From the NCBI GenBank assembly GCA_049472335.1, contig JBLIRO010000001.1, forward strand, positions 12,225 through 76,224: DNA of 64,000 nucleotides. The letters run 5' to 3'. This document shows positions 12,330 through 55,520 of this stretch, one piece after another. Made by a program: the position numbers and the translations under genes. Positions within the stretch are counted from its first letter, which is position 1; each line of letters begins with the position of its first letter. Source of the DNA: a bacterium. GTDB lineage: Bacteria; SZUA-182; DTGQ01; JAFGSM01. The notes below the pieces were generated by a model, which worked only from the letters and a program-made list of their open reading frames with translations, had not been told where the DNA came from and made no database searches.

Positions 12330-12614
12330 GATAGATACCTCCCAAAAAACTTTCCGAATAAATATGTATAAAATTTTTTTTATTTTTCTCATAATACATG
12401 AGTTAATTCAAAATGTTAATACCCCCCATTGCAATTTCTGAAAATCTCGGCGGGACCTTGATAAGAAATCCAAAATGCGAAATACAGATCTTAAAATGCA
12501 GGATTATATATTCTTTTTTAATTTCTCTACTTGATTTTTATGAATTTAGAGGTTAGGTTATAAGGATTAACAAAAGACATGGATTATTAATAAACCGAAA
12601 AAGGGGGGCTGTTC

Positions 12615-22975: not shown

Positions 22976-23139
22976 TCTGAGTGGAGAATTAAAACACTGA
23001 AATCATTATTACACAATCTCCTGCTAGTAATTCCTGCAGTATTAATGGGCCTCTACTCCAATCATATCAAATTGTATTTTATGACAATGTTAATCTTGAA
23101 GAATCGGAGATTTTAGTGAACGGCTTCATTAAATTGTCC

Positions 23140-23535
23140 TTATAGATCTATCTTCTCATGTTTTAAGCCAACAATAGAGCTGATGATTTCAAAATCGTTG
23201 TCTACATGTAATATAACTGCTTTCCCCTCGGCTGCTGCAGCAATGATAAGATCAGTTGTTGGAATTGTTTTCCCTTTTCTATCCAGCATGAATCCATATT
23301 TAGCTGCCGTTTCTATAACGGAATTATCTATAGGGATCTGAGGGAGTGAGAGAAACGTATCCTTAAGCATTTGAAATGATTTGTTGTCTTTAGCACCCCT
23401 CAGTATTTCTACAACCACAATACCGCAGGAGACCGCGTTTTCTTTTTCGAGAATTTCCCTCACCCGGGCTTTTACTCTTTTTGATCCTTTAGGTCTTAAG
23501 TATTCAATCCATGCTGAACTATCTATGAGGAACAT
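23140..23535 (-). CDS. vapC: PIN-domain toxin VapC
   Basis: The protein begins MFLIDSSAWIEYL..., contains acidic PIN residues and is 131 aa. It overlaps the upstream antitoxin. Confidence 0.8.
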   Translation of the reverse strand: MFLIDSSAWIEYLRPKGSKRVKARVREILEKENAVSCGIVVVEILRGAKDNKSFQMLKDTFLSLPQIPIDNSVIETAAKYGFMLDRKGKTIPTTDLIIAAAAEGKAVILHVDNDFEIISSIVGLKHEKIDL

Positions 23536-23746
23536 CCCTTTTCCTGTTTCTCAAAAAATTATCTAAAGTGAAGGATAGCTCTATTTTTCCTTCAAGCTCT
23601 AACAATTTTTTCGCTTTTCTGCGCCTTATAAACTCCTCAAGGGCTACTTCAACGGCTTCCTTCTTTGTCCTGGCACCTGACAATTCCTTTGCCTCGTTCA
23701 GCAATTCTTCATTTATGGCTAATGTTGTTCTCATTGATGCCTCCAT
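23519..23746 (-). CDS. vapB: VapB-type antitoxin (ribbon-helix-helix-like)
   Basis: A 75-aa protein overlapping the vapC start by 17 nt. The N-terminus TTLAINEELLNEAKELSG is typical of VapB. Confidence 0.6.
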   Translation of the reverse strand: MEASMRTTLAINEELLNEAKELSGARTKKEAVEVALEEFIRRRKAKKLLELEGKIELSFTLDNFLRNRKRDVPHR

Positions 23747-23926
23747 AAAGCATATTATATTAGCATAATATCAGATGCATTTATTCATGTCAAATTTATT
23801 GTTTCTGTGATATACATTTACCCTACAAGAAAGGGGACGGAGTTAGTTTATTATTTTAAGATGCTCAGGATTAAAAAGTGAACCAATTTTCCCCTATCTT
23901 CCATGCTGCAATCAAAAAAACTCGCT

Positions 23927-24496
23927 TCAATTTAATGTAAAAGATTTAACAATATTTTCAAAAACCTCGATGTCACGAGGGAAGTAATGGAGACTGGGTG
24001 CTCTATAGTACAGGGTATAAAAGCCGATTTTATTTGTAAAACCATAAAGAATCAGTTCATATCTTAATCCCCTTTCATTTTTGAACTGGGCATGTATCCT
24101 GAAACCCGGTCTGCCCCCGATTGTGGTGGGTTTATTTTCAAGGACAACAATATTTGACATGTCACTCGTAGCTTTCATCTCAGAAATGGTCAACTCGGCT
24201 AACTCTGAAGGCAGCATATCTTCGGAAGATCTTTTCCCTATGGCAGGAAATGCATTTTGATGGGAGTATTTTTCGATTAAAATGATCTGAATACCAGGTC
24301 CGTCCCGGGTAATGAGGAGCTTATCCTTAACGAACTCAGCGTGCACCCATCCAAAAGGTAAATTTACGCTATAAGTATTATCCGGGCCATTCATATAAAT
24401 CTGATCAAGCCGGACCCATGTCCTTGGTGCGCAACCGATGATTAGAGCTATTAATAAAAACGATATGATATATAAAAACCTATTTATTTTAATCAT
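23927..24496 (-). CDS. Lipoprotein, function unknown
   Basis: Signal peptide with a lipobox (LIIGC). It is the last gene of an envelope-protein operon. Confidence 0.5.
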   Translation of the reverse strand: MIKINRFLYIISFLLIALIIGCAPRTWVRLDQIYMNGPDNTYSVNLPFGWVHAEFVKDKLLITRDGPGIQIILIEKYSHQNAFPAIGKRSSEDMLPSELAELTISEMKATSDMSNIVVLENKPTTIGGRPGFRIHAQFKNERGLRYELILYGFTNKIGFYTLYYRAPSLHYFPRDIEVFENIVKSFTLN

Positions 24497-25656
24497 TGTT
24501 CTTTTTGTATTTGTCTAATGTATTGTCGAATATAATCCTTATCCTCAGCATCAGGTTCTATCTGCAAATATTTAGACAGATAATAAAGTGCCTGTTGAGA
24601 ATCATCCTTCTTCATATAATGCAAACCAAGCGCCCTATAGGGAGGCGCGAAATATGGCAATTTTTCAATGCATTTAATATAAGCATGCACGGAAAGATCC
24701 TGATCCCCTTTTTCATCCCGCAAACGATAGGCTTCACCTTGATAGAAATATGCATCAGGAGGATAATGTTTTAACCTTTCAGTGTCGCTCAATACAAAAA
24801 TAAGGTTTTTATAACGACCTATTGAAAGATCTTCCCTCAGGCATGCCAGTCGTAGCTGACTCGTTTTTTCCAAATACTCTTGCTCTCCGATTCGGCCACG
24901 GCGGTATGTTTGATCGCGGTTGAATTTTGTGAAGTTTTCGATTCTCTCCTGAAGCTTTGGATGTGAAGAAAAAAAGAAAGGTTCCTCAATTTCCAGGGCT
25001 TCGACCTCTGCCTTCAGATGCATAAAAGCCTTTACTGACTCTCTTGTATCATATCCTGCTTGTTTGAGTCTCTGATAGCCTATCTCATCCGCTTCCCTTT
25101 CCAGATCACGGGAATATCCATAAATTGAAGAAAAAGCCAGAACATCTACTAAAGGGATGCCTGCCATTTTCATAAACGTGGCAAATGCAGCAGTGGATTT
25201 CAGTTTTAATCTTTGTTTAAGCGCATGTTTCTGGACGAAATGAGCTCCTTCATGAGCCAAAACTGAGGCTACCTGAGCTTCGTTATCAAAACGTCCAAGA
25301 ATTCCCAGGTGAATATATATACTTCCATGAGGAAGGGCAAAGGCATTCAAGATCGGCGATTTGAGCACCAGAACGTGAATATTCCCTTTGAATTCGGGAT
25401 AGAGCAGGTCCATAATTTCCTGCAGGTAGGATTGAAGTACGGCGTCCTTATACAGTTGATCCATATTGAGAATCGTTTCATCAAATTTATTCCCCTGCAT
25501 CCACAATCGAGATTCATCATCTGTAAGGGGCTTGACTTCGGAGCCTGCACTGAAAGGCCTGACAGCTCGGGTGGTCTGACACCCTGCAAACATAGAGAAG
25601 CCAAAAAACAGCATGAAATATATCTGAAGTAATTTATTTTGCCTAAGACTTATCAT
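24493..25656 (-). CDS. M48-family zinc metalloprotease with C-terminal TPR region (BepA/YfgC-like)
   Basis: Contains the HExxH motif (AHEGAHFVQKH) and an N-terminal lipoprotein-type signal. The C-terminus (YYLSKYLQIEPD...) is TPR-like. Confidence 0.75.
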   Translation of the reverse strand: MISLRQNKLLQIYFMLFFGFSMFAGCQTTRAVRPFSAGSEVKPLTDDESRLWMQGNKFDETILNMDQLYKDAVLQSYLQEIMDLLYPEFKGNIHVLVLKSPILNAFALPHGSIYIHLGILGRFDNEAQVASVLAHEGAHFVQKHALKQRLKLKSTAAFATFMKMAGIPLVDVLAFSSIYGYSRDLEREADEIGYQRLKQAGYDTRESVKAFMHLKAEVEALEIEEPFFFSSHPKLQERIENFTKFNRDQTYRRGRIGEQEYLEKTSQLRLACLREDLSIGRYKNLIFVLSDTERLKHYPPDAYFYQGEAYRLRDEKGDQDLSVHAYIKCIEKLPYFAPPYRALGLHYMKKDDSQQALYYLSKYLQIEPDAEDKDYIRQYIRQIQKEQ

Positions 25657-26444
25657 TACTTTAATTTTGCCTCCGGATAATTCTCGAGATAAATATTGAG
25701 TCCCGGATAGTCTTTTAAGATATCCCGGAGCGTGAAATAGGCGTCTTCCGGCTTTCGCATGTCCATGATTTCACGACCGGATCTATGATTAAACCAGACA
25801 ATGTCCCCTGTTGCCAGGTCCACAACGCTAATCGCCAGAAAAGAGCTGCCCAACGAAACAGGAACACCAAAAATGACACCCGCCACTCCCATAGCTTTGC
25901 GGCCTGAAGTCGGGATAACATCTGATCCTGTTATAAACAAACAAGTATCTGCCCCTGTTTTTTCTTTAAGAAAGTTCAAGCCTTTGCCCAGGGTATAATC
26001 AAAATGATGCTCTTTATGTCTCCAGGCCGGATAACTTGAATAGGAAAACACATATGCATTATTACATATTAAATCATAAAGGGCGAGATGCTCGTCAAAT
26101 ATCATCTGTTCTTCCGGAGTCAACTCTACCATATCAATGATGTCAACAGCCGGTATGGATGCAAAATATTTGAAGATTGCTTCATGACTATTCTCTGATG
26201 CTTGTTCTGACCATTGAGAAACCTCTTCTATCACCCCACCTGATGACATTTCGCTCATCTTAAGTTTCACAGGTAAAAATAAGATCTTTTGAGGATTATC
26301 TTTTGAAAACGATTGAAGGACAGCAAAATAATTGCCGTTTATTCTATGGCCCGGAGCAGCTTGTATTTGAACTGCATATCCTATGATCAGAGAAAGGGCT
26401 ACGGACACAATAAAGGTTAGATGAAACTTTTTAATAAACTTATC
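25656..26444 (-). CDS. Exported hypothetical protein
   Basis: Signal peptide (…FIVSVALSLIIGYAVQIQA) but no recognisable domain. Confidence 0.4.
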   Translation of the reverse strand, partial: DKFIKKFHLTFIVSVALSLIIGYAVQIQAAPGHRINGNYFAVLQSFSKDNPQKILFLPVKLKMSEMSSGGVIEEVSQWSEQASENSHEAIFKYFASIPAVDIIDMVELTPEEQMIFDEHLALYDLICNNAYVFSYSSYPAWRHKEHHFDYTLGKGLNFLKEKTGADTCLFITGSDVIPTSGRKAMGVAGVIFGVPVSLGSSFLAISVVDLATGDIVWFNHRSGREIMDMRKPEDAYFTLRDILKDYPGLNIYLENYPEAKLK

Positions 26445-26584
26445 CATTCTTAGTATCCACTTTGTTTTTTTAACATGGGATTTTTTCCACATTGTATCTT
26501 TTATCCGATTTGGTTGTAAGTCTAAAACAAAATATATTGGATAAAATAATGGTCATTACAAACAAATCCATTGATACTTTTCCT

Positions 26585-27307
26585 CTATCGTCTGAAACCC
26601 TGTGAGTTTTCTATTAAGTCAAGTTTTTTCTGTATCTTGGCCTTCAGACTATCATTGTCAGCCTTTTGAAGTGCCTCTTTATAAGACTCTTTCGCCTTTT
26701 CTATGTTCACTAAATTACTTATGTGATTTCCTCGCATTTCAGTATATGCGTCCCCTTTTAATTCATAATATCTGCAAGGCGCTTCACCCGCCAAAATTAT
26801 TGCCTTTTCTATATATCTTGTCGCGCTATCCGGCCGGTTATTAATAAGATAGCTTTTTGCTAATATATACAATACATCTGGTTGATGTTTATATTTCTTC
26901 GACATCGCTTTCCCCATATAATACGGTGTATAAATCAATTGCTTGTAAGCTTTGTCACCATTTGCCTTCATAATATCACATTTTTCTAAATAGGCCCTGG
27001 CAAGAAGTATCCTTGGTCTTATAACATCAGGATTTTCATTACAATAAGGGCTCAATTCCGATATTACATCATCATATCTGCCCTGATCAAACAGCTCGAC
27101 AGCTTTGCTGTATGGATCTTCTGTGTCTTCATCGTAATAATTTTGATACAATTCCGCCTTCTTGCATATTAATTGAATCTGCTGATCATTTAATCCCTCT
27201 TCTTTCATTGCTCTTATAAGTCCCTGGGTACATGATTCTGAAAGACATGGTAAGCTTATAAAGATGACAACAAAAAGTGGGCACAGCAGAAAAAATAATT
27301 TTTTCAT
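26585..27307 (-). CDS. Secreted TPR-like repeat protein
   Basis: Signal peptide with helical repeat-like, K/E/Y-rich sequence. Confidence 0.45.
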   Translation of the reverse strand: MKKLFFLLCPLFVVIFISLPCLSESCTQGLIRAMKEEGLNDQQIQLICKKAELYQNYYDEDTEDPYSKAVELFDQGRYDDVISELSPYCNENPDVIRPRILLARAYLEKCDIMKANGDKAYKQLIYTPYYMGKAMSKKYKHQPDVLYILAKSYLINNRPDSATRYIEKAIILAGEAPCRYYELKGDAYTEMRGNHISNLVNIEKAKESYKEALQKADNDSLKAKIQKKLDLIENSQGFRR

Positions 27308-27838
27308 TTGCTCTTTCTCCATGTTTGTTATTATGCCAGGGATTTGCTTTTACGTTTTAAATTATAGGGAAGAACCCTGATTTTATCAAGAGAAATATTG
27401 AAAATTATTTTCTATAAAATATCGAATGTGAATTTTTAAGTATGAAAATAAGTAAGGACTATATATCAATCTGTTTTACCATTTGGAGTGAGAAGATGAA
27501 GAAGTTTTTTGATGACAAATAACATATTAAGATAACATTTGTTACCTTATGGTGTCCAGGGAACGTTGTTTACTAATCTTGCTTATTTATTTCTTCTCCT
27601 GTCTCATGAGTTTTATTATAAGATATTAAAGACTTTAACTGCTTTTACCATTTCATATTTTGTTCTTGGCTGTATGGAAGAAATCAGCCCCTACAAGAAT
27701 TTGAAAGGCTTTTATAAATCATCGTTTCTTATTTTCTTCGGTTAACCTTATCTTAGCCTCTTCATAAAAAGCTTGGTTGAATAGGGCTTCAAATCATTTT
27801 CCGGTAGATTTTTATTAAATTTTGTTTTGAAGAAGCGG

Positions 27839-30800
27839 TTAGTGCGTTTCAGTTGATTTGATTATGCTGCAATGCCTTCCATGGCATTCCGAGCATTTAT
27901 AAGGGGAAGCGGAGTTCACATAATCCTCATGATCTCTCAATTCATCCTTATGACATGTGCAGCAGCTATTTTTACCACAGTCGTTCGGATCTTTCTCCCA
28001 TTTCTCAACCACATTGAGCGGTCCTTTATTGAGATAGTGTTTGCCTGAAGAGAAGACCCCGGGATGGCAGATCTGACAATCTGCAAGCTCCCTCGGATGT
28101 TCGCCGTGTTTCTCAACCCCATTACAGATGATATTGATTGACGGAGGGTCTCCATGGCAGTATCTGCATTTCCGGGAATCCAGGAGATACCCGCGCAATG
28201 ACGCGGTGCTGCCGTGGTCATGATGACATTCCGTGCAGGAAACCCAGGATGGGACCCTTGCATGAAGCAACTGCCCGTCCGGCAATTTGACGTCTCCATT
28301 GGCATGGCATACAACGCAATTTCTTGAACCCATTATCATTGAGCAATGTTCTTCATGACACGTATTACATGGAGAATTGATTGTGTCGTGAACCTTCATG
28401 GAAGGATTGAGCGGGTTCTTCCGGTCCTCGCCGTGACAGACCCCGCAATCATTATAATTATCTTCATCCTCGCTTTCAGAATAATAATCTTTATTGGTCC
28501 AGCTTTGCTCCATATTTCCTATCTTTGCGGAAAGCATATAATGCCCCTTTTCGATTACAAGCTTATTTTCTTTAGCTTTGAACATATCATGACAATTAAG
28601 GCAATTGGCCCGTACCGCGTGATTAAACCTGCCTGACTTACAGGAGACTGTGATCCGGCTGAGGTTTTCAGAGGTATGACACGACTTGCATTTTTTTTCA
28701 AGCTCGTCCTGTGTGGCTCCTTCAGCGTACAGGATCGACCCTGCTTCATGGGATGATGAGTGACAGTCTATACAGGCCAGACCTTCACTAAGAACAAACT
28801 TGTTGTGAAGATAACCGCCTGATACAACCTTTTTATCCGTCTCAGGGGTATGACATCCAAGGCAGGTGATTCCACTTATATGAGTAAGCCTGCGATGCCT
28901 TAAATGGCAGTCTGAACACCGGGAAGAGGGGTGGGATCTCTCATAGTTCTCATGGATGGTCTTGGATCTGCTGAACCTGTCCTTTTCTTTCGGATCGCTG
29001 AGATATTTTTCATGATGACACGCACCGCAGCCTGTAACCTCATTCCAGTCCTGTGTATAATGGAGATGAAGATGGACGTTGCTCTTTTTTTTGTAAGTGG
29101 TATGGCATATTGTACATGTTTTTCCGGTGACATCGGTAAAATCACAATGCCATTTAGGGACTGTAGATGGATGGCAGTCGCCACACTGGGCGGTGGGATT
29201 GGTTTTATCATAATTCTCATGGATAGTCTTTGATCTCCTGAATATCTCTTTTTCTTTCTGGGTGGTTAGATATTGTTCCTGATGACATACACCGCACCCT
29301 GTAACCTCATCCCAGTCCTGTGTATAGTTAAGATGGATCCGGACATTACGCCTTTTGAAAAAGTTGATATGGTGTCCGTAATTGGGATTTTTTGACAAAA
29401 GCTCGATCACATTGGGATCTGTGATTTTGATTTTCTTGACCATATTGGGATCATTGCTGTTTATAATATCACACACCTTATCATGACAGAACGTACAATT
29501 CTTGTCCGCGGTATGCACCCAATGTTTATTCGCATCATGTACCCCGCCAAGAGGTTTCCCGATAATGGTTTGATTATGGCATTTGAGACAGCAGGCATCC
29601 ACGGCGCCTTGATTATTAGCTTGTAACGCGTCACATATGACAAATTTTCTATGCTCATTACCATGACATTCCGGGCAGCTTCCGGCAGGGAATTGATGAG
29701 CGAGTGACGATAATTGTGAAAGCTTGTGAAAACTCAATTTTTGTTCGTCAGAATGACAGCATCCGCATCCTGCCGGCTCGAAGGTATTGACGATTTTATC
29801 CCTTGCGAGAACTTCCACCTGACCGTTTACGTGCTTATAAAAGCCCGGTTTCTGCTCATACAGGCCATTATGAGGATGACATGTATCACATGAAGCTGTG
29901 CATTGTGAATGATTTGTCCCGGTCATATCAGGCGGGGTATGATGGCAATTACTGCAATAGTTGAATCGACCGTTTTCATCCTTACACTGGGGATTATTGG
30001 GGTCACGGCAATAGACAACCGATTCGTCCCATGTGTGGTTCCATGTGACAGTGGTATAAACCCCCTTTCCGTTACTGTGGCAGTAAAGATTTGTACAGGC
30101 CTTTGTCGTTTTGTTATATTTTCCGTAAGGATTACGATACGGATCGAATCTTACAGGAATATTGCCGTCGAGAGGGAATATGTATTCCTGATCCGGATCG
30201 TAAGAGGAATCTGATATATCCCTTGGGTCAATATGACATTCCCTGCAGGGGAAATTATACAATGCGTGCGTCCTGTGGGGATCCTTTACCCTTTTGCCAT
30301 CGGAAAAGGGAGGAGGTGGCGTTCCATGCCCCTTTCCCGCGATGTCGGGTTTGTTTCCCCTGCTCCGGTACTCCTCATAGTCGAAGGTCCCGATATGGAT
30401 TCTGCCGATTCCGTGGCACCTGCATGTGGGGGCAAAGGCCTTTGAATTGAAGGGATACAGGCCAACAGTATCATCGAGTTTCCTCTGTTCCTCAAGGGTA
30501 TAAGGCGGCAGGGGAAGAGGAGGATCAGGGTCGTGCACATGACATCCTGTGCAATCGGTGTCGCGATAGTCGATTACATATACATCTGAGGGCGCACCGG
30601 GATTTTTATCCGGATCGAAATAGTGTCGGGCACCGTTTCGGTGGGGCTCACTTTTTATATCAGGGTCCTTGTCCGCCCCCGGTTTGGTCCATCTCGCCTT
30701 ATCTTTTCCCTGATGGCATACCTCGCAGATATCCGAACTATTTTCGGGTATTACAGGGGAATTGACAGGGGAGATTCTTTCTCGTATATCCAGCCTTAAT

Positions 30801-32368
30801 GGGTCACTAAAATCCACCGCCCATGACTTCGAGTGATCAACCGTGGGGGGCCTGGGATTGTCGGAGGATATTTCGGGGCTGCAGGATGCCTGTGTGAATT
30901 GGCTGAAATGGCAGTTGCTGCACTTCTCTTTTTCTTTATCTATCCTCCCGTTTATCATAAAAAGATTGGTTTTTCCATTTTCACTCCCTGATCCATGGGG
31001 ATTATGGCATACGATGCAATGAGAATCCCTTGCCTCGTGCTGATATTTACTACTGTGACTCGATTCGCATACAAGGTGCGCATATTTAGCAGGATGACAC
31101 TCCCTGCATTTTTTCCAGACAGAATTAGGAGTAAGGATTTTTTTATTCAGCTCGATCCACCGTTCGTCTTTGTATTTTTGTGTGTCCAGATGTCCATTAT
31201 ATTTTCCTATTGGCAGCCCTGTGGGATAATCACGAGACTCAACACACATAAGTTTCTTGACCGTTGTGTTTGACCAGTGACATTCCCAGCAAAAGTTTTT
31301 ATTTCCATCATTCGGATCCAGATCGAGGTCGTATGACTGGCCGTGTTTTTTATCGGTAACAGGCATGTTTGGGCTGTCCGCAGAGTTTCTATCGGAGAGC
31401 TTTGAGGATCTTTCAGGGGCAGGGTATCCTGTATCAAGCGTAGCGCTTGTGTAAGATGAATTAAACATCGCTCCATGCCCGTTGACAGACCAGTAATTCT
31501 GACCCGGAACCTTATCAGGATCCGGCGCCGTTATGGTGCATTCCTCATATTTCCAGTCGTGATAGAACGTATAATCCTTTTCAATCAACGTTGAATACCT
31601 GCTTACGTATGAGGCATATATCCCTCCGTTCTCCTCAGAGTCATCATGACATTGCAGGCAGGTGACCGTGGCAGGATCGCCCCATTGCAGAATTGACACG
31701 GAATCGGGATCTATATCCGAGGGGCTGCCTATATTCAGATCCCATGCGCGGGAATGTTTCGGATAGAATCCTCCATGACACCTGGTGCATACGAGCGTAT
31801 TTTCCAGTGTCTTTCCGTCTTGAAAGAAGATATTTTCCCCTGTATTATGACCATCCCGGGTTGCTTTATTTGATTGATATTTCGATTTATCATGGCAATC
31901 CAGACACCTTCTCCCCAATCCAAAAGGCTGATACACAAGGTGGGTCAAATGTCCTTTTTTTCTCATTGAATACTGTTTTCTATAACCTAAAGAGGGATTT
32001 GGTCCCGGTTTCCTGACCGGATCATAGGTTAACGAAGAGTAGTCAACAGGAAACCGTCTGCCGTTTTTTAAGGAGGTAAAACAGGAACAGTTTGGTGAAT
32101 CAGGATCATCAGGATCATATGCCAAATCAGGATAGAGATCGGAGTGGCAGGCAAAACACCCTTCATCCTTAAGTGGCTGAAGCAAGAGAGGCCACAATTC
32201 GTCTGTTGTATCGCCCGGTGTATTGCCTGTTGTATAACGTATCCAGCGCTTCCCGTTTCTCTGAACACGGTCAAAGGCAAAGAGAGGGATAGCAGAGTGA
32301 AAAGAAAAAAACAGCAGAAAAAGAATTAAAGAGAGAGTTTTAAAAACCAACTGCTTATAATCACTCAT
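27839..32368 (-). CDS. Giant multiheme c-type cytochrome (about 33 CxxCH motifs), secreted
   Basis: Signal peptide. By my count there are about 33 canonical CxxCH motifs, plus candidate CX4CH (CTNLYCH) and CXCH (CRCH) sites. There is also an internal ~60-aa tandem duplication (…NYTQDW(D/N)EVTGCG(V/A)CH…KTIHENY…). Confidence 0.9.
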   Translation of the reverse strand: MSDYKQLVFKTLSLILFLLFFSFHSAIPLFAFDRVQRNGKRWIRYTTGNTPGDTTDELWPLLLQPLKDEGCFACHSDLYPDLAYDPDDPDSPNCSCFTSLKNGRRFPVDYSSLTYDPVRKPGPNPSLGYRKQYSMRKKGHLTHLVYQPFGLGRRCLDCHDKSKYQSNKATRDGHNTGENIFFQDGKTLENTLVCTRCHGGFYPKHSRAWDLNIGSPSDIDPDSVSILQWGDPATVTCLQCHDDSEENGGIYASYVSRYSTLIEKDYTFYHDWKYEECTITAPDPDKVPGQNYWSVNGHGAMFNSSYTSATLDTGYPAPERSSKLSDRNSADSPNMPVTDKKHGQSYDLDLDPNDGNKNFCWECHWSNTTVKKLMCVESRDYPTGLPIGKYNGHLDTQKYKDERWIELNKKILTPNSVWKKCRECHPAKYAHLVCESSHSSKYQHEARDSHCIVCHNPHGSGSENGKTNLFMINGRIDKEKEKCSNCHFSQFTQASCSPEISSDNPRPPTVDHSKSWAVDFSDPLRLDIRERISPVNSPVIPENSSDICEVCHQGKDKARWTKPGADKDPDIKSEPHRNGARHYFDPDKNPGAPSDVYVIDYRDTDCTGCHVHDPDPPLPLPPYTLEEQRKLDDTVGLYPFNSKAFAPTCRCHGIGRIHIGTFDYEEYRSRGNKPDIAGKGHGTPPPPFSDGKRVKDPHRTHALYNFPCRECHIDPRDISDSSYDPDQEYIFPLDGNIPVRFDPYRNPYGKYNKTTKACTNLYCHSNGKGVYTTVTWNHTWDESVVYCRDPNNPQCKDENGRFNYCSNCHHTPPDMTGTNHSQCTASCDTCHPHNGLYEQKPGFYKHVNGQVEVLARDKIVNTFEPAGCGCCHSDEQKLSFHKLSQLSSLAHQFPAGSCPECHGNEHRKFVICDALQANNQGAVDACCLKCHNQTIIGKPLGGVHDANKHWVHTADKNCTFCHDKVCDIINSNDPNMVKKIKITDPNVIELLSKNPNYGHHINFFKRRNVRIHLNYTQDWDEVTGCGVCHQEQYLTTQKEKEIFRRSKTIHENYDKTNPTAQCGDCHPSTVPKWHCDFTDVTGKTCTICHTTYKKKSNVHLHLHYTQDWNEVTGCGACHHEKYLSDPKEKDRFSRSKTIHENYERSHPSSRCSDCHLRHRRLTHISGITCLGCHTPETDKKVVSGGYLHNKFVLSEGLACIDCHSSSHEAGSILYAEGATQDELEKKCKSCHTSENLSRITVSCKSGRFNHAVRANCLNCHDMFKAKENKLVIEKGHYMLSAKIGNMEQSWTNKDYYSESEDEDNYNDCGVCHGEDRKNPLNPSMKVHDTINSPCNTCHEEHCSMIMGSRNCVVCHANGDVKLPDGQLLHARVPSWVSCTECHHDHGSTASLRGYLLDSRKCRYCHGDPPSINIICNGVEKHGEHPRELADCQICHPGVFSSGKHYLNKGPLNVVEKWEKDPNDCGKNSCCTCHKDELRDHEDYVNSASPYKCSECHGRHCSIIKSTETH

Positions 32369-32470
32369 CTCTCTAACCTACTATAAATCATAATGTTAAG
32401 AATTTACCTTTTAGAAAAATTATAGAGAAGGCCCCTGCCTTTGTCAATATAAATTAAATAAATAAAATAA

Positions 32471-32492
32471 TTGTCAATATAAATATTGACAA
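32471..32492. promoter_or_regulatory. 22-bp perfect palindrome TTGTCAATAT-AA-ATATTGACAA, with an extra half-site copy at 32441-32454, upstream of the multiheme cytochrome gene; candidate operator
   Basis: A perfect inverted repeat lies about 100 nt upstream of the 32368 start. The half-site TTGTCAATATAAAT is repeated 30 nt away. Confidence 0.4.
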
Positions 32493-32695
32493 TTATTTTC
32501 TAAAAACCTTACAAGGAAAAGTATTGACCCGGATAGTTCATTTAAAAAGAAAGTTATAACGCTAAAGGATCAAAATCAGATTGCTTTTAAGCAATATTTA
32601 TCGTAAGATAAAAATATAATAATATGATATTAGAATAAATGAGTATAGTCAAACATATTGTCATCTGATTTATAAAAAATTTAGCCATAAATAAC

Positions 32696-34674: not shown

Positions 34675-36699
34675 TCAAAAGTGGAGAGCTGTAGATAGCT
34701 GGACTACGCTTACGCTGTCAATCACCGGCCCATAATAGCTGTTAGATCCAATGGCCGTAAACTCGATTGTAGTTGTCGGTCCGGTCGCTGTGAACTGGAA
34801 CGTGAACGGCGTGAACGTCCGGTCCGCCGACCGTCCAACCCGTGATTGTCGTACTGTCTCCCGGAGCAACCCCCATATATCCAGGACCCCGAGCAAAAGT
34901 AATACCACCACCGTTTACAAACACCCCGAGCTCAAAGCTGCCCGCTCCTATACCGTAGGTTGCATCTATAATGTTGGTCGTATGGACAATCTCGGTTATT
35001 GTTGCCGCAAGTCCGGTGGCATCGGAATAAATATTACCGTTCGATCCAACCACAAAATTGACGAATTCTCCATGATTGAGGGTCTGACTAATGCTAAAAC
35101 CCTTCAGGTCGGCGCGTCCGTTGATATAATCCGAGAATATATCCTGCTGCATATTTGCAGTGATATGCACATCAGTAGTGGCATTATCCAGGCCGATAAA
35201 GTAGCCTGTGATGCTGTATGTACCAGTGCGTGATGCAGTGAACCTCAATACAGTCGGAATAGCGCTGTAGCTTGGATCGAAGCGAAGGACATTGGCAGGC
35301 CAGTAATAGTTATCCGAGATGGGCACACCGGTCCAGTCAATAAATGGCCCTCCGGAAGGACTATACCAGCAACCAAAGTTTTGGCTGCTGTCAGAATATG
35401 GAAGCAGGCTGAATGTACTTCCGGTGTAATACCCGTAGGAGAAGGGGGGATTTGGGTTAGAAACACTGGAAAAACCGGTTGTTACGTCAATAGCTGCCCC
35501 TTCAACCACGGCATTCCCCTTTCCCGAATTGTAAAGATATACAAGCTCGGCATCCGTAAGGGCTCTGTTCCAAAAGGCAACCTCATCTATCATGCCATTC
35601 ATTGCAAAGCCCCGAGCGTCACCGTCTTCCCGTTTGCCGAGGAGAAGGGAATTGGCGGAGGGAGTTCCGGCTATGGCGCCTATTGAATTGTTATAGGCAA
35701 CCAGGGTCCCGTCCGAGAACATCTGCAGGTAGCTTCCGGTTCACTGGACAATATATTGGTGACACTGGTTGGTGGCAATATTGAGAACACTGGAATCGAT
35801 ATACGGCCATGCATCGAGGTGAAAGCGAAGTGCATTAGTATGGAGCTTGGTGAGTGTCCATCCAGGGCCGCCAGCACCAGTCAATTTCTCGATGGCCACC
35901 TATTCATTGGCGGTGGTGTTGTAATTCACCCATATCTGGATCGTGAAATCTCCTGATCCAACATCAAAGGCAGTGTCGTTTGCGCTTCTGACTGCATATG
36001 ACCCGGTGCTGCCTGAAAGGGTCAAGCCTGGCCCATGAGCCCGGTTGAGGCAAGCCCTGTTCCGTTAAGGGTGAGGTCTCGCCCATGACCGCTGGAATCA
36101 AGACCGCTTCCATCAAATTGCCAGTAGCCCTGAAGTCCATTGGTCAAGGGAGGGCCAAGGTCTAAAATAGATTGATAAAGCTGACCGATCTCAGCCTGAG
36201 TCATGGCCTTGTCGTGGACACGGACATCATCGATATCTCCTATAAATCCACATATAAAGACACCTGTGTGTAAGAAAACACCGCCCATTATCAAGTCCAC
36301 ACCATTATAGTAAGGTGTTCCGGGCTCTGAGCTGATAAACTGTCCATCGACATACAGACTACCAATAGATCCGTCATTTGTGCCTACTACAAAATGCCAT
36401 TGGTTGTCATCATATGTATAAGGAGTCACTATTCGTGTGCCATCCCGGTTGAAATAGAAATCAAGCCTGTTTGTATTGACTGCCGGGTCCCAGTTACGTC
36501 CAACATCAATAAAATAGCCATTTGTAAAACCAGCGGAATGCTTGCTAATGATCATATATTCGCCGGTGCCAAGAGTGCTGTATCGGACCCATGCCGCCAG
36601 AATGAATCCGCTCGCACCAAAATTGAGGCTCACAGTATTCGCGAGATCCACATAGCCTGATCCATCAAATCTCAGTGCACTTACTATCATTACGCACAT
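34675..36699 (-). pseudogene. Fragmented LamG/concanavalin-A-like domain secreted protein (at least three frames)
   Basis: The ORFs 36699-36022, 35722-34742 and 34911-34675 are consecutive pieces on the minus strand. LamG-like motifs include ALRFDGSGYVDL and ...DEVAFWNRALTDAEL. Confidence 0.45.
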
Positions 36700-37186
36700 T
36701 TAATTTCGAGAAACTATAGGACCAACGCTTGTTTTAGCAGTTGGTCAGGAGCAAAGCAGAAGGCCAATCCGACTCCAAGCAGTTGTACGCTGGGGACTCT
36801 TGGGGGCATCACTCCAGCAGCAGGCGGATGAAGCAACCACCTCCGCCTCCTCCATCGCCTCCGCCTACTCCATTGCCTCCGCCTATTCCATGGCTCCCGC
36901 TGTCGTCGACATCAAAAGAAAATGGCAAATAGGTGCCAAAACCAGCAATATATTGAACAGGAACGAAATCCTCCGGGATTTGAACAGGATACCATTTTAA
37001 ATAATTATATCAGCTTAAGATTAAAGAAAGATTAAAATAAGATTAAAAATTTTTAATCTTATCTTAAATAGAAGTCGTTAGGGGTTTGAGGGTATTTCAG
37101 GGACGTTGTTGAGCAAATTGACAAGCTATTATTTGTCAACTTTGTCAACAACGTCCCCTTTATTTTCTATTTGAAACCCTTGAATC

Positions 37187-40100
37187 CTACTGCACAGTTA
37201 TAAATTCACTGGCTGAATGGCTGTTGAACTCAGGCGCGTACATACACTGAATCGAGGCCATCCCCATCTGATACTCCCCTTTATGCTGTATCCTCAGAGC
37301 ATACTCAAATACATATGTTCCCTTGGGAAGATAATCAATGAAGAAATGGGTGGCCGTGTCCCTTGTGGACTCATAATATGCAAGCCCATCCTGATATTTA
37401 TATTGAGAGAGTACATTGACCGGCTCGGTTCCGGACCCTCTGTAATCCTTCATGTGAACGTACTCCATATCCCTGTCCGACCGCAATATTATCCTGACGA
37501 TAATCTTATCCCCCACGGCAAGATTGCCCTGAACCGGCTCTATCACAGGGCCTTGTGTGGTCTGTCTTTCCACATAGAGGGATTTTTCCAGTTGAAGCGG
37601 CGTATCTTCATGCGGGGTAACCTTGCTCATATCTTCAAGATACTGCCAATGGAGGCTGCCCCAGGCAATCCCATCATCGAGCTTCTCTACGGTGACCTGG
37701 CCGTAATCGGACAGGACCTCTTCCCTGATAAACTTCTTCTCATAGAACCCTGTGCCCGCTTCGGTGGTCTCAGGGACTATCAACATATCTCCCAGGGTCA
37801 CATTAACCAGTTGATCAGAGGCGAGTAGGTTTTCACCCCTCAGCAGGAGTGCATAGACTGCATCGGCAGTAGCTTTGGAGGTCTTCCAGTTCTGGGTTTG
37901 CTTCTGCTTTAGCAGCCATACCTTTAGATCCTCTACTGCTGTCTGGTCATCAGCCACTTCATCAAATGCCTCTATCATCACTGCCTGGGTTTCTATGGGG
38001 GCATGGAACCACCACCAGGAAAGCTCCAGGTCCCTCCAGAACATGCCCAACTCCTCATCGCTGACTGAGCGTTCCTTCAGGGAGGCCATTATTTTGTTGG
38101 CTGTCACCGGATCATTAAACCTGTTACAGGCCAGAGCCAGGTGTCCCTGGGATAGTCTCGAGTTTAGATCAAGCCAGTATACTGCTGCCTGACCCAGGAA
38201 ATAATAGACCGCTTCCTGACAGTCATCAGGAATAGGCTGGATATCCTTGTAAAAGGATCTTCCGTAAAGATACATGGCAATGATGCTGGTGAGGTTGTTC
38301 AGCTCAGGGTGCCCATACTGTTTGATTTTCTCATATCTATCTTTGATGGAATTATCCAGATAATCAAGGCTTCTTATGGCCAAATCCTGTTGAATATCGA
38401 TATTCATATGCCGTAAGCGGCCGAAACCTGTCATGATATATAATGTCATATAGAAATTAGCCGGTCCGCCGGGGAACCAGGACCATGCCCCGTCCGAACG
38501 CTGCATCTGGGAAAGTTTGTAATAGGCGCTGGAAAGGGACGTCTCCATCTGATCTTCATCAAAGAGCAGGCCCACACGTCTTTTGGCCTCCGATTCACTT
38601 TCTGCGGCCCTGACCCAGGGGGTCTCCTCCAGGAGAACAGACTTTAGTTCCTCATTCTTTTCCAGATTGGAATCCAATGCATCGGTTTCCCGCCATTGAT
38701 CAAAGACACTTTTAATTTCAGGGTCCGAATTGGCAATATGCCTGGCTAGGGCATTGGCGTAAAGCCGGTTGAAGGCACTTGTTGAACATTCATGCTGATA
38801 TTCTATCAAGTATGGCAGGCTCTGCACCGCATACCAGGCCGGATTGCTTACCATCTGCAGTGTAAGGGCTTGATGCTCCAATGTGTCTGATGCATCCGAT
38901 TCAAGAAGCTTGTCAAAACTGAATATCTTGGTCTGGGCCCCACGAATGGGTAACGGGAGCGATTCGGTCACAAAAATTCTGTTTGAAAGCACCGGCAGGC
39001 AGGCTTCCTCACCGTCAGAGAGCGTTCCTGTGGAGGCTACAACCCTGTGGGTTAGAGCGCCTGTAAAGTCGTCCGGGACCTCGATCTCCCAGTAATAGGA
39101 CCGGGAGCTGTTTGCCGGCACGGAAAAAGACTGATCTGGCTGGCCAATTTGAAATTCATTATCCAGAGATTGCCCGGTAGAGGCATCCGACAGGGTCAAC
39201 CTGATAGTCCCGTTTAGTCCCTGATCAGATATATTAGTCACCTTGGCTGAGAATAAAAGGATATCCCCTTCTCTAAAAAAACGGGGAGGATTGGGCTGCA
39301 CCATCAAATCCTTTTTAGTCACGGTCTCTTCGGAAAGCATTCCCCAGAGCAGGTCTCTGGCATGGGCAAAACCCATAAATTTCCAGGTTGTCAATGCCTC
39401 GGGTATGGTGAATGTAATGGAGACCCGGCCCTCTTCATCTGTAAGCAGGTGAGGGAAAAAGAAGGCTGTCTCATCCAGGTTTGTTCTGGCTGAAACCTGA
39501 GAAAGGTCTATCTCCTCCTCAGGCTCTTCAACAGAACCTGCTGTTTCACCTCCATATGCGGGGGGGGCTGGTGTCTTATCTGCACCATCAGCGTCTTGTG
39601 CACTGTTATATGAGTACGATGAGTACGATTCTGAATACCCGTACATTCCTCCACCATAACCATAATAATAGCCCGGATATCCATAATTGCCATAGTTCTG
39701 AATAACGTCATCAGGAAATCGGGTATAGGTCCTGCTAATATAACCTGAGACATATTCGTTCCACTCATATGTCCGGCTCCTGGGATAACTGACATTATTA
39801 GCAAACCAGATTGAGAGGCTGCTGTAATCCTGTCTGAAGATAGACCCAAGTCCGGACCAGTTGTGGATTTGAAATAGATCGAGGGAGGAATCATACAGGG
39901 TAGCCACCATTTCTGCGGCCACATGTTCCGCCTCAGATCCCTTGATCTGGATTGTCCAGGTTTCTTCAGCCCCGGGGTCAAGCTTCGACCTGAAGGAAGA
40001 AAAGCTTACTTCAAGGTCCTTATTTGTCCAGGGGACATCTATGCGTTCTTCCGAAATATAGGCGCGGTTGTCATGCACCTGAGTTATATGCAGGAAGAAT

Positions 40101-43100
40101 CCCCCTCTGTATCCCTCAAGAACAGGCCACGTTACTTTTTGCTGGGTATTCTGAGCTTCTGTCCAGTAGCTTTCTACAATCTGCCCTCTATGTTCAATCT
40201 CGATAAAGGCATGGCCCTCCTGATAGCCGGTGCCCCAAATGGCTTCAAGTGTATCACCGACCTCCAGGGTCGTGGATTTCAACTTTACCATATCCGGGAT
40301 AGGGACATTATAATCAGACGCGCCGGGATCAATCACCATTATCGGAAGCACAGCACTTACTTCCTCACCATGACTATCATAAGCCGTGGCTATTGCTTTG
40401 TATACACCTGGCTGGAGGACAAAGGAGACCTTATGTTCCCCTTCAGAGGTATTGAACTGGGAGGAGGCCACTGCTTCATTTTCCGGCCAGTTTTCCCATT
40501 TGGATTCATCTACGCTATCTTCAGACTCTCCCATAGGCTGACCCAGGAGGGATGATCTTACAGGCCTTTGAGGCTGCTTTAAATCAAATACCGTTATGGT
40601 TCCAACGGCATTGAGAGGTTGTTGATCCAGCGTCATGGCAGAGACGCTCAATTCTACAGGCTCGTCACTGGTTAACCAGTCGGAGGCGGAGATATTCAGT
40701 TCCATAGATACGTATCCGATATTTACCCTCCTGCTGGCCGAGCGTGTCTCGCCTGCGCCGTCTGTAACATCGGCCGAAACCTTGAAGATAAATGTCGGCT
40801 TATCCGATTCAGGTATGGAACGGTCAGGCCTGGCTGTGAAACGAATGTGAAATCTGCCTTCCGAGTCGGTCTGGAGCCGGCCGTGTGCTATCTCCCTGGC
40901 GCTCGAAGATTGGTATCTGCGCCACCAGCACCAATAGGGATAGCGCACCTCTCTAACCACCCGGTAAGAGACATTGGCGTAATCAATCGGCGCCCCGGTA
41001 TAGGCCATGGCAAGGCCTGAAAGCTCGACCTCTTCATCCAGACGGCTCTCCGCTGTAGGCGGATCAAGGGTTACTCTAAACTTGGGCCTCTTGTATTCTT
41101 CCACTCTGATACTTGTACTCCCGCTCGGCTGGCTGCAGCTTATGGTCATATTCCCGGCAAGTATTCCGGCAGGAGCGGTAAATGTGCCGGAAGCAGAGCC
41201 GAATGCGTTTGTAATCAGATCCAGATGTTCGACCTCCTGGTAATTGTGATCCCTAAACATAATAGTCAGGCTGGTATTTGGAAGGAAATCGTAGGTATCG
41301 TTATCCTGGTTGCTCTTTATGGCCAGAACCTTGAAATGAATCATCTGGCCGGGTCTGTAAATGGCCCGGTCGGTAAAAAATATCGTCCTTTTATATTCGC
41401 CATTTTCTTCTCTTTCATAGGTATAACCTGACCAGCCCAGCAATTCATATCCTTGATATTTAGCGTGCAACACTCTGGTTCTATTAGAAGGGTTAGGGAC
41501 AGTAAAGGAACCCTTTTCATCTGTATAGGTTACAGCCGCCTGGTAATAATTTCCCTCTGAGTTTTGTATAAAGATGGTTATCACAGCCCCTTCAAGAGGT
41601 GCCCCGCTATGGGCATCCAGTATAAAACCACCGGCTGTGCCATCAATTGACTTCGTCACCATGGCTATCTCTGTCACCCAGAATGTAACAATCCTTATGG
41701 CGTTTTTATCCTCCGCGAAATCCTCTCGCCACGAGGCTATCAACCTATAATAACCCGGTTCTAAAGAAGGCAGATCAATGGCATGAGAGTGAGTTTTGTA
41801 ATCTATGGTCGGTTCCAGATCGAGTGACCATGATTTTGCAGGTATTGCTTGAATAAGCTCCTGAAACTTATCATTATCTATATAATACGGTGAGCTGTAA
41901 GTTTCTTCTAAAAATTCATCCCATTGATCCTTTACTACACGAAAATGCACCTTGTCAATATTTCTATAATCGATCCTGACTTCGCTATATGAAGGAGTAA
42001 CTGAATATTCACTCTGCAGGGTCATCTCCTTTGCCTCTATCTGGCTCAGGAGAGATCGACACATATTCGACCCGTATGAGCCTGTATGCTGAGCTTCACC
42101 TATTTTGGCAATCCTGTGCGCTTCAACATAGTTGTCCTGACCATAGAGTTCCTGGGCCCAGTAATAGTACGCCAGACTCGATAGGGACATATATGAGTAA
42201 GTCTCGGCAATCTCGGACAGCCTCGTCATATAATGACTGGATTTTTCCTCTCCAAATGAATATCCCTTAATGAATGCCAGCCTGTTGATATCCGCGTCAA
42301 CAAAGGCCTCTTTTGAGGAGTCATTGATGTGAAAACCCAGAACCTTCTGGTAAAGCTTCATGGCCTTTAACACAGGAGATGAGGTGTCTGTTGTTTCAGG
42401 TGTATATAGTATAAAATCCGCTGCCGGTGCAAAGGCGTCCGAATCCGCATCCAGCTCGAAGGCATCCTCCGGCTCATTTCTGAGCTGATCGCCATCCTGG
42501 TAAAAGGAAATGGCGGAAAAAGCGGCAAAATCAAACAGTGTTGGCCTGTAGGACACCGGAACAGTGCCTTGTTCAAAAAAATCACTAAACGTTTCCATTG
42601 ACATGGATTTCAACTGCTCCTCCTTGGAAAGCACCTCGGTGTATAGCTCATCTATTTTGTCAAAAAGCCGGGGCAGGTCCCAGGTAGTAAAATCCGACTC
42701 ATCTATAACAGCAGTGGCATCACGCTCTGAAAAGCGCCACCGGTTTTCCTGATAGTACTGCCAATACCATTGAGCCAAGACAAGCTTTAACAGAGGCTTA
42801 AGTAAATCAGGGGCATTCTCTATCTCTTCAGTCAGCCTTATTATCTTTTCCTCAGGTTTATCTCCCTGAATATTGGCTTCAAGCACAAGCTGTTTGCAGA
42901 TCCCCTTCATGGCCAGGCCGTATTTTTCCTTTTCAAGGGCAATAGGTATGAATTCCTCCAGACGATCTATAGCCGTCACGGGGAGACCGTTTTCAATGGC
43001 CTCACCGATTTTTCCCCATAACCGTTCAAGGTCCTCATCAGTAGGAGGAGTAGCCGGCCATGCCCACAGACCGGTTCTCAAATAAAGGGTATCAAAAGGC

Positions 43101-43591: not shown

Positions 43592-44029
43592 TTGTTTTTT
43601 CCTCCTTCTATCTATCGGTATTGCTGATCCGAAGGAGCCCCCCCTCTTCATGACAGCATTTTTAAATAAGGATACGAACGGATAGGCCGAACGTACAGGT
43701 CATATTTAATGCATATAACGTGCCTGTGTTTTATCCCCTTTCCTTCTCATTAGAAGTATTGGATGCATTTTTTTGTCTCTATATAATAGACGTAAAAACT
43801 TCTACAGTTTCCTACGAAAAAATCAAATGTTATTGATTTTTTATTGACAGGACTATCTATTCTCACATATACTTTCCCGTATTAAAATAGATACAAATTT
43901 TGCATTGTATTAATTTTCAAAGACAGGCTTGAGTCCATAATTGTCATTATATTTTTAATATAAGAGAAAAAAGTCTAAAAATCTAATGGACATCCCGGAG
44001 CGCCAAGGGGTGAAAAAGGAGGGGGAAAA

Positions 44030-44703: not shown

Positions 44704-44934
44704 CTATGCAGCAATTCTTTCATAATTAATTACTTCAATCTCCGGCAATTCTGTATTGTCTAAAAATTTTTCGATTTCAAGAATTGTTTCATTAGCCAGA
44801 TAAATCTCTCCACAGTTCTCACATACTAAACAAGGGATTTTTTTGATAATGAGTATTTGATCCTTTTCATAAAAAAGTTTATTAGTATTTCCAGAATTAA
44901 ATTTAGTATGTTTACAAACAAAGCATTTTTTCAT
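44704..44934 (-). CDS. YgiT-type zinc-finger protein (antitoxin-like)
   Basis: Two CxxC pairs are present: CFVCKH...CLVCENC. It overlaps a DUF4258 partner by 4 nt. Confidence 0.55.
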   Translation of the reverse strand: MKKCFVCKHTKFNSGNTNKLFYEKDQILIIKKIPCLVCENCGEIYLANETILEIEKFLDNTELPEIEVINYERIAA

Positions 44935-45251
44935 CTCTTTTTTCTCCTTTCAAAGCCCTCTTCCCAAATCTCTAGCCTTGGTTGATATGTTGTTATAAAA
45001 TAAATTTCAAAATCTTCAGCATTTATCCCAATAACCATATGCGAGGGCATCTTATCCCCTTTATAACCAAGAATTAAAAAAGACGAGAAAGGCTTGTCTT
45101 CATAATCGCTTTCTATTATTTTAAAATACTGAAGAGCAAAAAATATCTCTTTTGTCTTGATTTTTCTGCTTCTCATCTGTTCTAAGATGTGCTCTTTCCA
45201 AACAATGGAACCTTTTTTAATGCTCTCTTTTATAATTTTTTCAATATTCAT
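44931..45251 (-). CDS. DUF4258-like protein (toxin-like partner of YgiT zinc-finger protein)
   Basis: A 106-aa protein; this pairing with a YgiT-type gene is a recurrent toxin–antitoxin-like arrangement. Confidence 0.45.
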   Translation of the reverse strand: MNIEKIIKESIKKGSIVWKEHILEQMRSRKIKTKEIFFALQYFKIIESDYEDKPFSSFLILGYKGDKMPSHMVIGINAEDFEIYFITTYQPRLEIWEEGFERRKKR

Positions 45252-53120: not shown

Positions 53121-53480
53121 AGCATTCCCCTTAAATAAATTTATTTCATTGCCATTAAATTTCATAAGGAATTGCTTTAAAATAAATAATGAATAGGATT
53201 TGCTTTCCTGTATAAAAGTATAAGCAGAGCTTTCGACTTTTGTTTAAAAAGCTCCTATCTGCATCGTATAGCTCATTTACTAAAATATGGAAGATTTTTA
53301 ATGTCTCACAAACATATCAAATCGCTTGCAAAAAAACAACTGTAGAAGCAGTTTCCAACTAATTATTTTTTTTATAAACTTTTATCCTTCGGTGTGATCC
53401 ATAGATCATGAGTGTTTAGCAAAAGATGAATCTGGTAAATTTCAATCTCTGGCTAAGAAAAAAGAGATAGATGAAATCAT

Positions 53481-53915: not shown

Positions 53916-53945
53916 AAATCATAGTTGACAAAACAGGGAGATTTT

Positions 53946-55496: not shown

Positions 55497-55520
55497 CCTG
55501 ACACACACAGGATTTTTTAA

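Follow-up and report, generated by a model that had tools for sequence, protein, structure and literature searches.

A 1509-residue multiheme c-type cytochrome with a conserved head and a modular tail, predicted from a metagenome-assembled genome

In this study, a stretch of bacterial DNA of 64,000 nucleotides (nt), corresponding to positions 12,225 to 76,224 of contig JBLIRO010000001.1 and called the window below, was analyzed around a gene at positions 27,839 to 32,368 that encodes a very large cytochrome. As judged from its sequence, the product is a multiheme c-type cytochrome that is exported and kept under selection; it has a conserved head and a modular tail, and heme attachment is predicted. 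Three features are new: an N-terminal module of about 630 amino acids (aa), the head/tail organization of a very rare protein family, and an invariant contracted heme motif, CRCH.

The cytochrome gene and its relatives

The gene and the peptides that carry its two non-canonical heme motifs are as follows.

27839..32368, minus strand: complete multiheme c-type cytochrome gene, recognized from its 1509-aa open reading frame (ORF), its motif count and its ratio of nonsynonymous to synonymous substitution rates (dN/dS)
Peptides with the CRCH and CTNLYCH motifs: FAPTCRCHGIGR and ACTNLYCHSNGK

The ORF comprises 1509 uninterrupted codons starting with ATG at position 32368, and since an in-frame stop lies 3 codons 5′ of this ATG, the start is essentially fixed. 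The protein, with cysteine and histidine contents of 6.1% and 6.4%, displayed 34 CxxCH motifs, compared with 0.36 expected from its own content of these two residues. It contains 97 histidines versus 13 methionines. Besides the canonical motifs, there were two candidates with unusual spacing, CRCH (a CXCH motif within PTCRCH) at aa 649 and CTNLYCH (CX4CH) at aa 758; another CxCH (CTCH, aa 1470) and a CX3CH (CCLKCH, aa 926) only overlap canonical motifs. The mature apoprotein has a calculated mass of approximately 167 kDa, or approximately 190 kDa with 36 hemes.

A preliminary description of this DNA had reported a 1509-aa secreted cytochrome with about 33 CxxCH motifs and one CX4CH and one CXCH candidate. 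The multiheme assignment holds, the gene is intact, and the exact count is corrected to 34. Both non-canonical candidates are indeed present, and they are invariant in all 6 to 7 relatives that cover them. That description did not state the strand, which is minus, and the head/tail split and the extreme rarity of the family are further points absent from it.

Four relatives were retrieved when 5.8 billion protein clusters were searched with a word index:

P0001: 1319 aa, 69% identical to the cytochrome, from a metagenome-assembled genome (MAG) of Zodletone spring, a sulfidic spring
P0002: 2595 aa, 69 CxxCH, a paralogue from the same MAG as the window
P0003: 1638 aa, 39 CxxCH, encoded in a sibling MAG (GCA_049472415.1)
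P0004: 1750 aa, 27 CxxCH, from the same sibling MAG as P0003

Scanning of GTDB representative genomes added a 3257-aa relative with 60 CxxCH from a third MAG (55% GC), and three short fragments came from 241 million metagenome records. The number of CxxCH motifs per chain ranged from 27 to 69 among six relatives. A later profile search detected a fragment of the cytochrome's ortholog, 94% identical, in the sibling MAG; as the word-indexed search had missed it, the family searches were not perfectly exhaustive. When a profile of the head region (see below) was used in an exhaustive HMMER search of 1.84 billion representative proteins, only about 6 proteins, mostly fragments at contig ends, matched the first 600 profile positions, and approximately 80 further matches covered positions ~625–812 only. 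The family is thus very rare: the databases searched yielded about a dozen members in total, which come without exception from bacterial MAGs or metagenome fragments.

Comparison with the P0001 gene gave a dN/dS of approximately 0.16, with similar values in the head, the CxxxxCH/CxxCH domain and the tail described below, indicating that the whole chain is under purifying selection.

Conserved head and variable tail

Alignment of six family proteins divided the cytochrome into two parts. The head and the features within it are listed first.

29771..32203, minus strand: family-defining conserved head, aa 56–866, with 13 CxxCH plus CRCH and CTNLYCH and 261 columns invariant among 6 proteins
30299..32203, minus strand: N-terminal ~635 aa of the head, aa 56–690, without a Pfam, NCBIfam or PDB match
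30413..30424, minus strand: contracted CRCH, aa 649–652, in the invariant block FNSKAFAPTCRCHGIGRI, recognized from its conservation
29813..30133, minus strand: full CxxxxCH/CxxCH domain, aa 746–852, with CTNLYCH (30077–30097), CSNCH-HTPP and CDTCH-PHNG

The head, approximately 810 aa long, is common to all members, with pairwise identities of 52–77% in the six-protein alignment and a density of about one heme motif per 54 aa. Fourteen motifs (12 CxxCH, CRCH and CX4CH) were invariant in all six proteins, and the fifteenth, a CxxCH at aa 483, was present in five of the six. The same alignment contained exactly 15 invariant histidines outside the motifs. This number equals that of the heme sites and therefore fits bis-histidine ligation throughout the head; it also lends indirect support to the predicted heme occupancy of both non-canonical sites. 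Three cysteines outside the motifs (96, 277 and 375) were invariant, as were several blocks that carry no heme motif, namely KGHLxHLVYQPFGLGR, GGIYASYxSRY, ITAPDPDxV, PIGKYNGHLDT and GKGHGTPPPPF. The first ~630 aa of the head gave no match in Pfam, NCBIfam or PDB.

The CRCH motif was conserved in each of the seven sequences that extend over it (the window cytochrome, P0001 to P0004, the protein of locus L006, and P0015). Heme binding by a contracted CKCH has been shown in KsTH, a tetraheme cytochrome of Kuenenia stuttgartiensis, and this is the sole experimental precedent for a CXCH motif that binds heme (PMC7096707; Ferousi 2019 as cited in PMC11492766). The two motifs are alike in having a single, basic residue between the cysteines (CRCH in the window cytochrome, CKCH in KsTH). 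They differ in setting, KsTH being a small tetraheme electron carrier of the hydrazine synthase cluster, and heme attachment to CRCH in the present protein is predicted from sequence. If CRCH does carry heme, a second, unrelated family would join the one anammox tetraheme protein that represents the CXCH type so far, and the question would arise of which maturation system handles it.

The second non-canonical motif lies in a domain of known type. CxxxxCH/CxxCH domains (PF09698, GSu_C4xC__C2xCH; TIGR01904) were first described in Geobacter. Against a hidden Markov model (HMM) built from 587 domain copies in about 80 remote proteins, aa 746–852 scored 65 bits (E = 2e-21), with the motifs in the order CTNLYCH, CSNCH-HTPP, CDTCH-PHNG and FYKHVNGQV; the CX4CH is therefore the signature motif of this domain. 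The curated models stayed below their cut-offs (PF09698, 18.9 bits vs 21.7; TIGR01904, 20.2 bits vs 27). Like the CxxxxCH/CxxCH cytochromes, the protein has one complete domain with the CxNxYCH, CxxCH-xTPP and CxxCH...HxNGxV signatures, and P0001 is annotated by NCBI as a CxxxxCH/CxxCH domain protein. Unlike them, it has only one good copy, whereas tandem arrays of 5–25 copies were seen among the remote matches, and those proteins are devoid of the ~630-aa N-terminal module. Each family member had one strong copy, other matches reaching 15 bits or less. From these comparisons, aa 746–852 can be classed as a divergent copy of the domain, and the cytochrome is not a typical member of the CxxxxCH/CxxCH family. 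The domain has no established function, and a literature search found no study that addresses it functionally.

The region around CRCH is at most a weak candidate for a degenerate upstream copy of the same domain. HMM positions 18–85 could be aligned from the CH of CRCH in P0002 and P0004 (E ~7e-4), not in the window cytochrome, and direct pairwise alignment of the two halves was insignificant.

The properties of the head bear on an alternative to the electron-conduit function proposed below. The cytochrome could be a multiheme oxidoreductase, with a catalytic or substrate-binding heme in the 15-heme head and a tail that only feeds or drains electrons. Such a function would suit the unusual conservation, since the 261 invariant columns include long blocks without heme motifs, and also the three invariant extra cysteines, which cannot all be in disulfides because their number is odd. 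The special heme might be the one at CRCH, or one ligated by Cys 96, 277 or 375; the CXCH heme of KsTH is reportedly ligated in an unusual way, a point that was raised in favor of this explanation. As P0001 comes from the sulfidic Zodletone spring, a first guess for the substrate would be sulfur or another inorganic compound. On the other hand, 15 invariant distal-type histidines for 15 sites leave no site obviously without a sixth ligand, the cytochrome has no CxxCK and no known catalytic signature, Pfam, NCBIfam and PDB searches revealed no similarity to NrfA, HAO, OTR or MccA, and no accessory or maturation genes were found nearby. An enzymatic role therefore appears unlikely. The more specific proposal that the ~630-aa N-terminal part is an undescribed catalytic or substrate-binding module, with its special heme at CRCH or at a cysteine-ligated site, is quite unlikely; if true, the family, in an uncultured bacterial lineage, would represent multiheme oxidoreductases of a new class, each with an electron wire of adjustable length built into the same chain.

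The remainder of the chain forms the tail, in which a repeated module was recognized.

27842..29770, minus strand: variable heme-dense tail, aa 867–1509, with 21 CxxCH and matches to c7-like and MtrC/F domain II/IV-like models
29087..29353, minus strand: tandem three-heme module, copy 1, aa 1006–1094, repeated in DNA and protein
28820..29086, minus strand: tandem three-heme module, copy 2, aa 1095–1183, repeated in DNA and protein

With 21 CxxCH motifs, the tail has one heme motif per 30.6 aa. Pfam Cytochrome_C7 (PF14522) matched the cytochrome in 6 stretches, and PF22113 (MtrC/MtrF domain II/IV) matched aa 1080–1237 with 40.4 bits (cut-off 30), which is a generic multiheme match. Beyond the family, the best match of the tail had an E value of 7e-9 and about 21% identity, and the remote relatives were generic multiheme proteins with 20–25% identity.

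The tandem duplication noted in the preliminary description, there with a unit of about 60 aa, was borne out, the unit being 89 aa with three hemes. At the DNA level, positions 28904–29089 and 29171–29356 form repeats of 186 nt that are 77% identical and spaced by 267 nt, equal to 89 aa. At the protein level, the copies at aa 1006–1094 and 1095–1183 are 55–58% identical, with 3 CxxCH in each. The module occurs twice in the window cytochrome and in P0001, and once in P0002. Orthologous copies of the window cytochrome and P0001 were 76% and 68% identical, compared with 58% between the two window copies, and the duplication is therefore older than the split from P0001. The two copies of P0001 are 70% identical to each other, which suggests that they have been partly homogenized.

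Apart from gains and losses of module size, the tail and the initial part of the P0002 extension are collinear, and modules have been gained or lost among the window cytochrome, P0001, P0002 and P0003. The heme-rich extension outside the head varies from approximately 500 to 2400 aa among members; it is C-terminal in most of them and N-terminal in P0004.

A 274-bp copy of a tail segment (window 28262–28535), 87% identical, was observed in the sibling MAG (L011, 1813–2086). It lies directly past the stop codon of the ortholog and is annotated there as a 54-aa ORF. The copy is probably a stray heme-module fragment and may be taken as a sign of ongoing module shuffling.

Export and predicted function

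The N-terminus of the cytochrome carries a candidate export signal (the slash marks the predicted cleavage point).

32276..32368, minus strand: predicted Sec signal peptide, aa 1–31 (MSDYKQLVFKTLSLILFLLFFSFHSAIPLFA/FD), assigned by eye

The only hydrophobic segment of the protein is at aa ~5–33, with a cleavage-type site, LFA/FD. Signal peptides, judged by eye, were seen in all family members, including paralogues with SQA/A, LHA/S, VYA/N and PYA/Q sites, and the signal-peptide N-terminus of the window cytochrome is kept in P0013. These observations agree with the earlier proposal of a secreted cytochrome, with cleavage of the signal peptide predicted.

A similar N-terminus is encoded upstream of P0001, out of frame: at L001 ~9816–10000, an upstream ATG would give MIDRKYLVFITLSLIILLFLPF..., resembling the signal peptide of the window cytochrome. 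The annotated start of P0001 is probably wrong, and a frameshift in its MAG is the likely cause. At the other end of the chain, P0002 and P0019, which are on other contigs, have glycine-rich tails (…GGGGGLGGGGGGLGGGGGGGLGGGIPVI and …GGGLGGGGGVGIGVGVGGGMPLP) that may act as a sorting or anchoring signal; the window cytochrome has no such tail.

In two family members, Ig-like domains (He_PIG, Big_2, Big_9) and a MopE motif separate the heme regions. Such domains are typical of surface proteins and hint at an outward location, although the features of the window cytochrome itself would fit the surface and the periplasm alike. The surface-type domains are also relevant to a second alternative, in which the cytochrome would be a periplasmic electron store, a capacitor or buffer that holds up to ~36 electrons and evens out their supply when acceptors fluctuate, instead of passing them to the outside. 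Two roles, long-distance electron transfer and electron storage, have been ascribed to very large multiheme cytochromes (PMC11492766), so that storage has a precedent as a proposal. A soluble protein with a signal peptide only, and with no linked secretion, anchoring or porin partner, would suit it. The surface-type domains of the relatives argue against it, as does the head, since bulk storage needs no specific, highly conserved region. Furthermore, a set of many small cytochromes could store electrons at lower cost (PMC11492766). Storage as the main function appears unlikely.

Our preferred interpretation, to which we assign a probability of roughly 0.5, is that the cytochrome acts as a long-range electron conduit with a specific head and a tail of adjustable length. 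The Sec-exported holo-cytochrome, of approximately 190 kDa, would carry 34–36 covalently bound c-type hemes. These would be mostly low-spin with bis-histidine ligation, as suggested by the 97 histidines against 13 methionines. The heme density, especially that of the tail, suggests close packing, and the hemes may be dense enough to form a continuous electron-transfer chain. In solved c7-type polymers such as GSU1996, hemes are spaced roughly 1 nm each; by analogy, a chain of the size of this cytochrome could span tens of nanometers, a length comparable to that of the periplasm. The conserved head would serve as a specific docking or reactive end. The tail would serve as a wire built from small c7-like or three-heme modules, and its length would shift between relatives through tandem duplication and deletion of these modules. 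The protein would thus conduct electrons over a long range, with electron storage as a by-product, either across the envelope or at the surface of an anaerobic diderm bacterium. The preliminary description had linked cytochromes of this size to extracellular electron transfer or nanowire-like conduits of syntrophic and metal-reducing anaerobes; for the present protein, an extracellular or nanowire-like nature would be conjectural, as would such a lifestyle of its host.

Several observations weigh against a conduit. AlphaFold2 models of the head (5 sequences) and the tail (4 sequences) had mean pLDDT (predicted local distance difference test) values of 25.9 and 30.4, respectively, too poor for fold comparison or for tracing a continuous heme chain. 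A sequence scan of the cytochrome found no lipobox, sorting signal or membrane anchor beyond the N-terminus, and a motif scan found no hematite-binding-type motif. Among the genes linked to the cytochrome gene, in the window and at five homolog loci, none was recognized as encoding a porin, a periplasmic cytochrome, a quinol dehydrogenase or a secretion component. In addition, identities of 52–77% in the head exceed what a passive wire would need and hint at a specific, possibly catalytic function.

The known cytochromes closest in kind to the proposed conduit are giant single-chain proteins, which are known mainly from genome mining. In Desulfuromonadia, "nanowire-like" multiheme cytochromes with 27–87 heme motifs have been described, e.g. 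GSU2884/OmcA, OmcH and OmcG, and multiheme cytochromes with up to 113 motifs are known (PMC11492766), so the size of the present protein alone is unremarkable; the largest giant single-chain multiheme cytochrome with a solved structure has 16 hemes (PMC11492766). The window cytochrome resembles these giants and the dodecaheme GSU1996 in having many hemes per chain, repeated c7-like modules, about 30 aa per heme (in its tail) and growth via module duplication. It differs from them in that the tail shows no close sequence relationship to theirs and the conserved head was not found there, and its host lineage is not that of the Desulfuromonadia giants.

With the decahemes MtrC, OmcA and MtrF, it shares the PF22113 match above cut-off and a weak DmsE-family decaheme match; its score against TIGR03508 was 30, compared with a cut-off of 192. 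It differs from them in having no lipoprotein signal, no flanking beta-barrel domains I/III, and no MtrA/MtrB-type partner in the window or the homolog loci. Searches of PDB with the window protein and with the head profile gave no sequence match at E ≤ 1, including to filament subunits of the OmcS/OmcE/OmcZ type.

With its conserved 15-heme head joined to tails of very different length, the family lends itself as a natural experiment in the lengthening of heme wires through module duplication. The cytochrome may also be useful as a marker of extracellular or long-range electron transfer for an uncultured lineage from sulfidic and other anoxic sites.

Promoter and gene neighborhood

Two putative regulatory elements precede the cytochrome gene.

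32419..32447, minus strand: sigma-70-type consensus promoter, TTGACA-17-TATAAT, identical at 12 of 12 positions and ~50 nt before the ATG, a pattern match only
32464..32499, no strand assigned: perfect 36-bp palindrome with 17-nt arms (AAAATAATTGTCAATAT/ATATTGACAATTATTTT), a candidate operator, also a pattern match only

A third half-site of the palindrome is located at 32441–32450, over the -35 hexamer. With up to 2 mismatches allowed, the 15-mer of the palindrome occurred 6 times in the window, compared with 0.32 expected. One half-site, with one mismatch, is at 27395–27409, where it adjoins the promoter of the TPR gene that follows downstream. The palindrome was not found upstream of the cytochrome homologues. 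On the downstream side, a gap of 516 bp separates the cytochrome gene from the next gene, which has a promoter-like site of its own. The cytochrome gene looks monocistronic; a strong promoter of its own would drive it as a single-gene transcript, probably controlled by a regulator that binds the palindrome.

Directly upstream of the gene are MNT/HepT and DUF3368/UPF0175 pairs. Downstream, the order is a TPR gene, a gene for a 278-aa protein of unknown type, an M48 peptidase-TPR lipoprotein gene, a gene for a 189-aa lipoprotein, and then VapBC. Toxin-antitoxin modules had been described on both sides of the cytochrome; this holds for the upstream side, where the two pairs adjoin it, and not for the downstream side, where the four other genes precede VapBC. 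The same description had found no porin or periplasmic cytochrome partner adjacent to the gene, and the present analysis supports this: no other CxxCH was present in a credible gene within the 64 kb, and no porin was recognized among the neighboring ORFs that were scanned or read in the window. No gene neighbor was common to the six loci compared (the window, L001, L002, L003, L006 and L011). An Rfam search over the whole 64-kb window gave no matches, and there were no tRNAs.

The four downstream genes (TPR, 278-aa, M48-TPR and 189-aa) were considered as part of a cytochrome operon and rejected on account of the 516-bp gap, their own promoter and the swapping of the block in a sibling genome. 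They were likewise rejected as a source of a porin, as their products look like lipoproteins or periplasmic proteins, not beta-barrels.

In the sibling MAG, the 4.84 kb from VapBC to TPR (window 22976–27816) is replaced by a 1.8-kb MNT/HepT block (L011, 1776–3602), which sits between the cytochrome and amylase/GH57 genes. The swappable cassette adjoins the cytochrome gene, and both of its flanks are approximately 92% identical in nucleotide sequence to the sibling MAG.

Such surroundings raise a third alternative, namely that the cytochrome gene, as an accessory gene of a variable genomic island, is in decay or is not expressed. In favor of this, toxin-antitoxin, RHS and other accessory genes surround it, the cassette beside it is a different one in the sibling genome, and the protein collection does not include the exact protein. 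Against these points stand the intact 4.5-kb ORF, the dN/dS of ~0.16, the 94% identity of the ortholog fragment in the sibling MAG, the heme motifs that are invariant across genomes, and the consensus promoter. Decay is therefore very improbable.

Matching of exact sequences assigned the window to a 153.8-kb contig of a MAG with locus tags ACMUIU. For a GH57 enzyme encoded nearby, the closest named relatives were from other bacterial MAGs, and after these came a mixed group led by Omnitrophota with ~60% identity, which does not discriminate between lineages. Other genes of the window give some information on the host. Those for aldehyde:ferredoxin oxidoreductase, ferredoxin and a rhodanese/sulfur-transport fusion point to an anaerobic bacterium, and the genes for lipoproteins and for a bacterial alpha-2-macroglobulin hint at a diderm envelope. 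The fusion (10455–12392) is a 645-aa protein with a metallo-beta-lactamase fold, two rhodanese domains and a sulfur-transport membrane domain; its gene adjoins those for ferredoxin and aldehyde:ferredoxin oxidoreductase and hints at sulfur handling by the host. The gene for the alpha-2-macroglobulin, of 2154 aa, and two ORFs with LamG domains that directly follow it on the same strand lie within 34742–43651. One of these ORFs, of 326 aa, matches the last third of the LamG model only and may be a fragment.

Further observations concern the remaining parts of the window. A P-type cation ATPase at 3947–6120 is spread over three consecutive or overlapping ORFs (N-terminal part; E1-E2; hydrolase plus C-terminal part); this stretch has 50% GC, compared with 43% for the window, and probably represents either a pseudogene that arose by frameshift or an error of assembly. 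Positions 45948–53165 encode a 2405-aa RHS/YD-repeat protein, in which NHL repeats and five motifs of the MopE type were recognized. Just downstream of it, on the same strand, there is a DUF4258 gene (44931–45251), and the pair looks like a polymorphic-toxin locus. The region 53925–60369, with 52% GC, encodes an HlyD-DUF192 fusion, an ABC exporter with a C39 peptidase and a second ABC protein, and looks like a bacteriocin-type export island.

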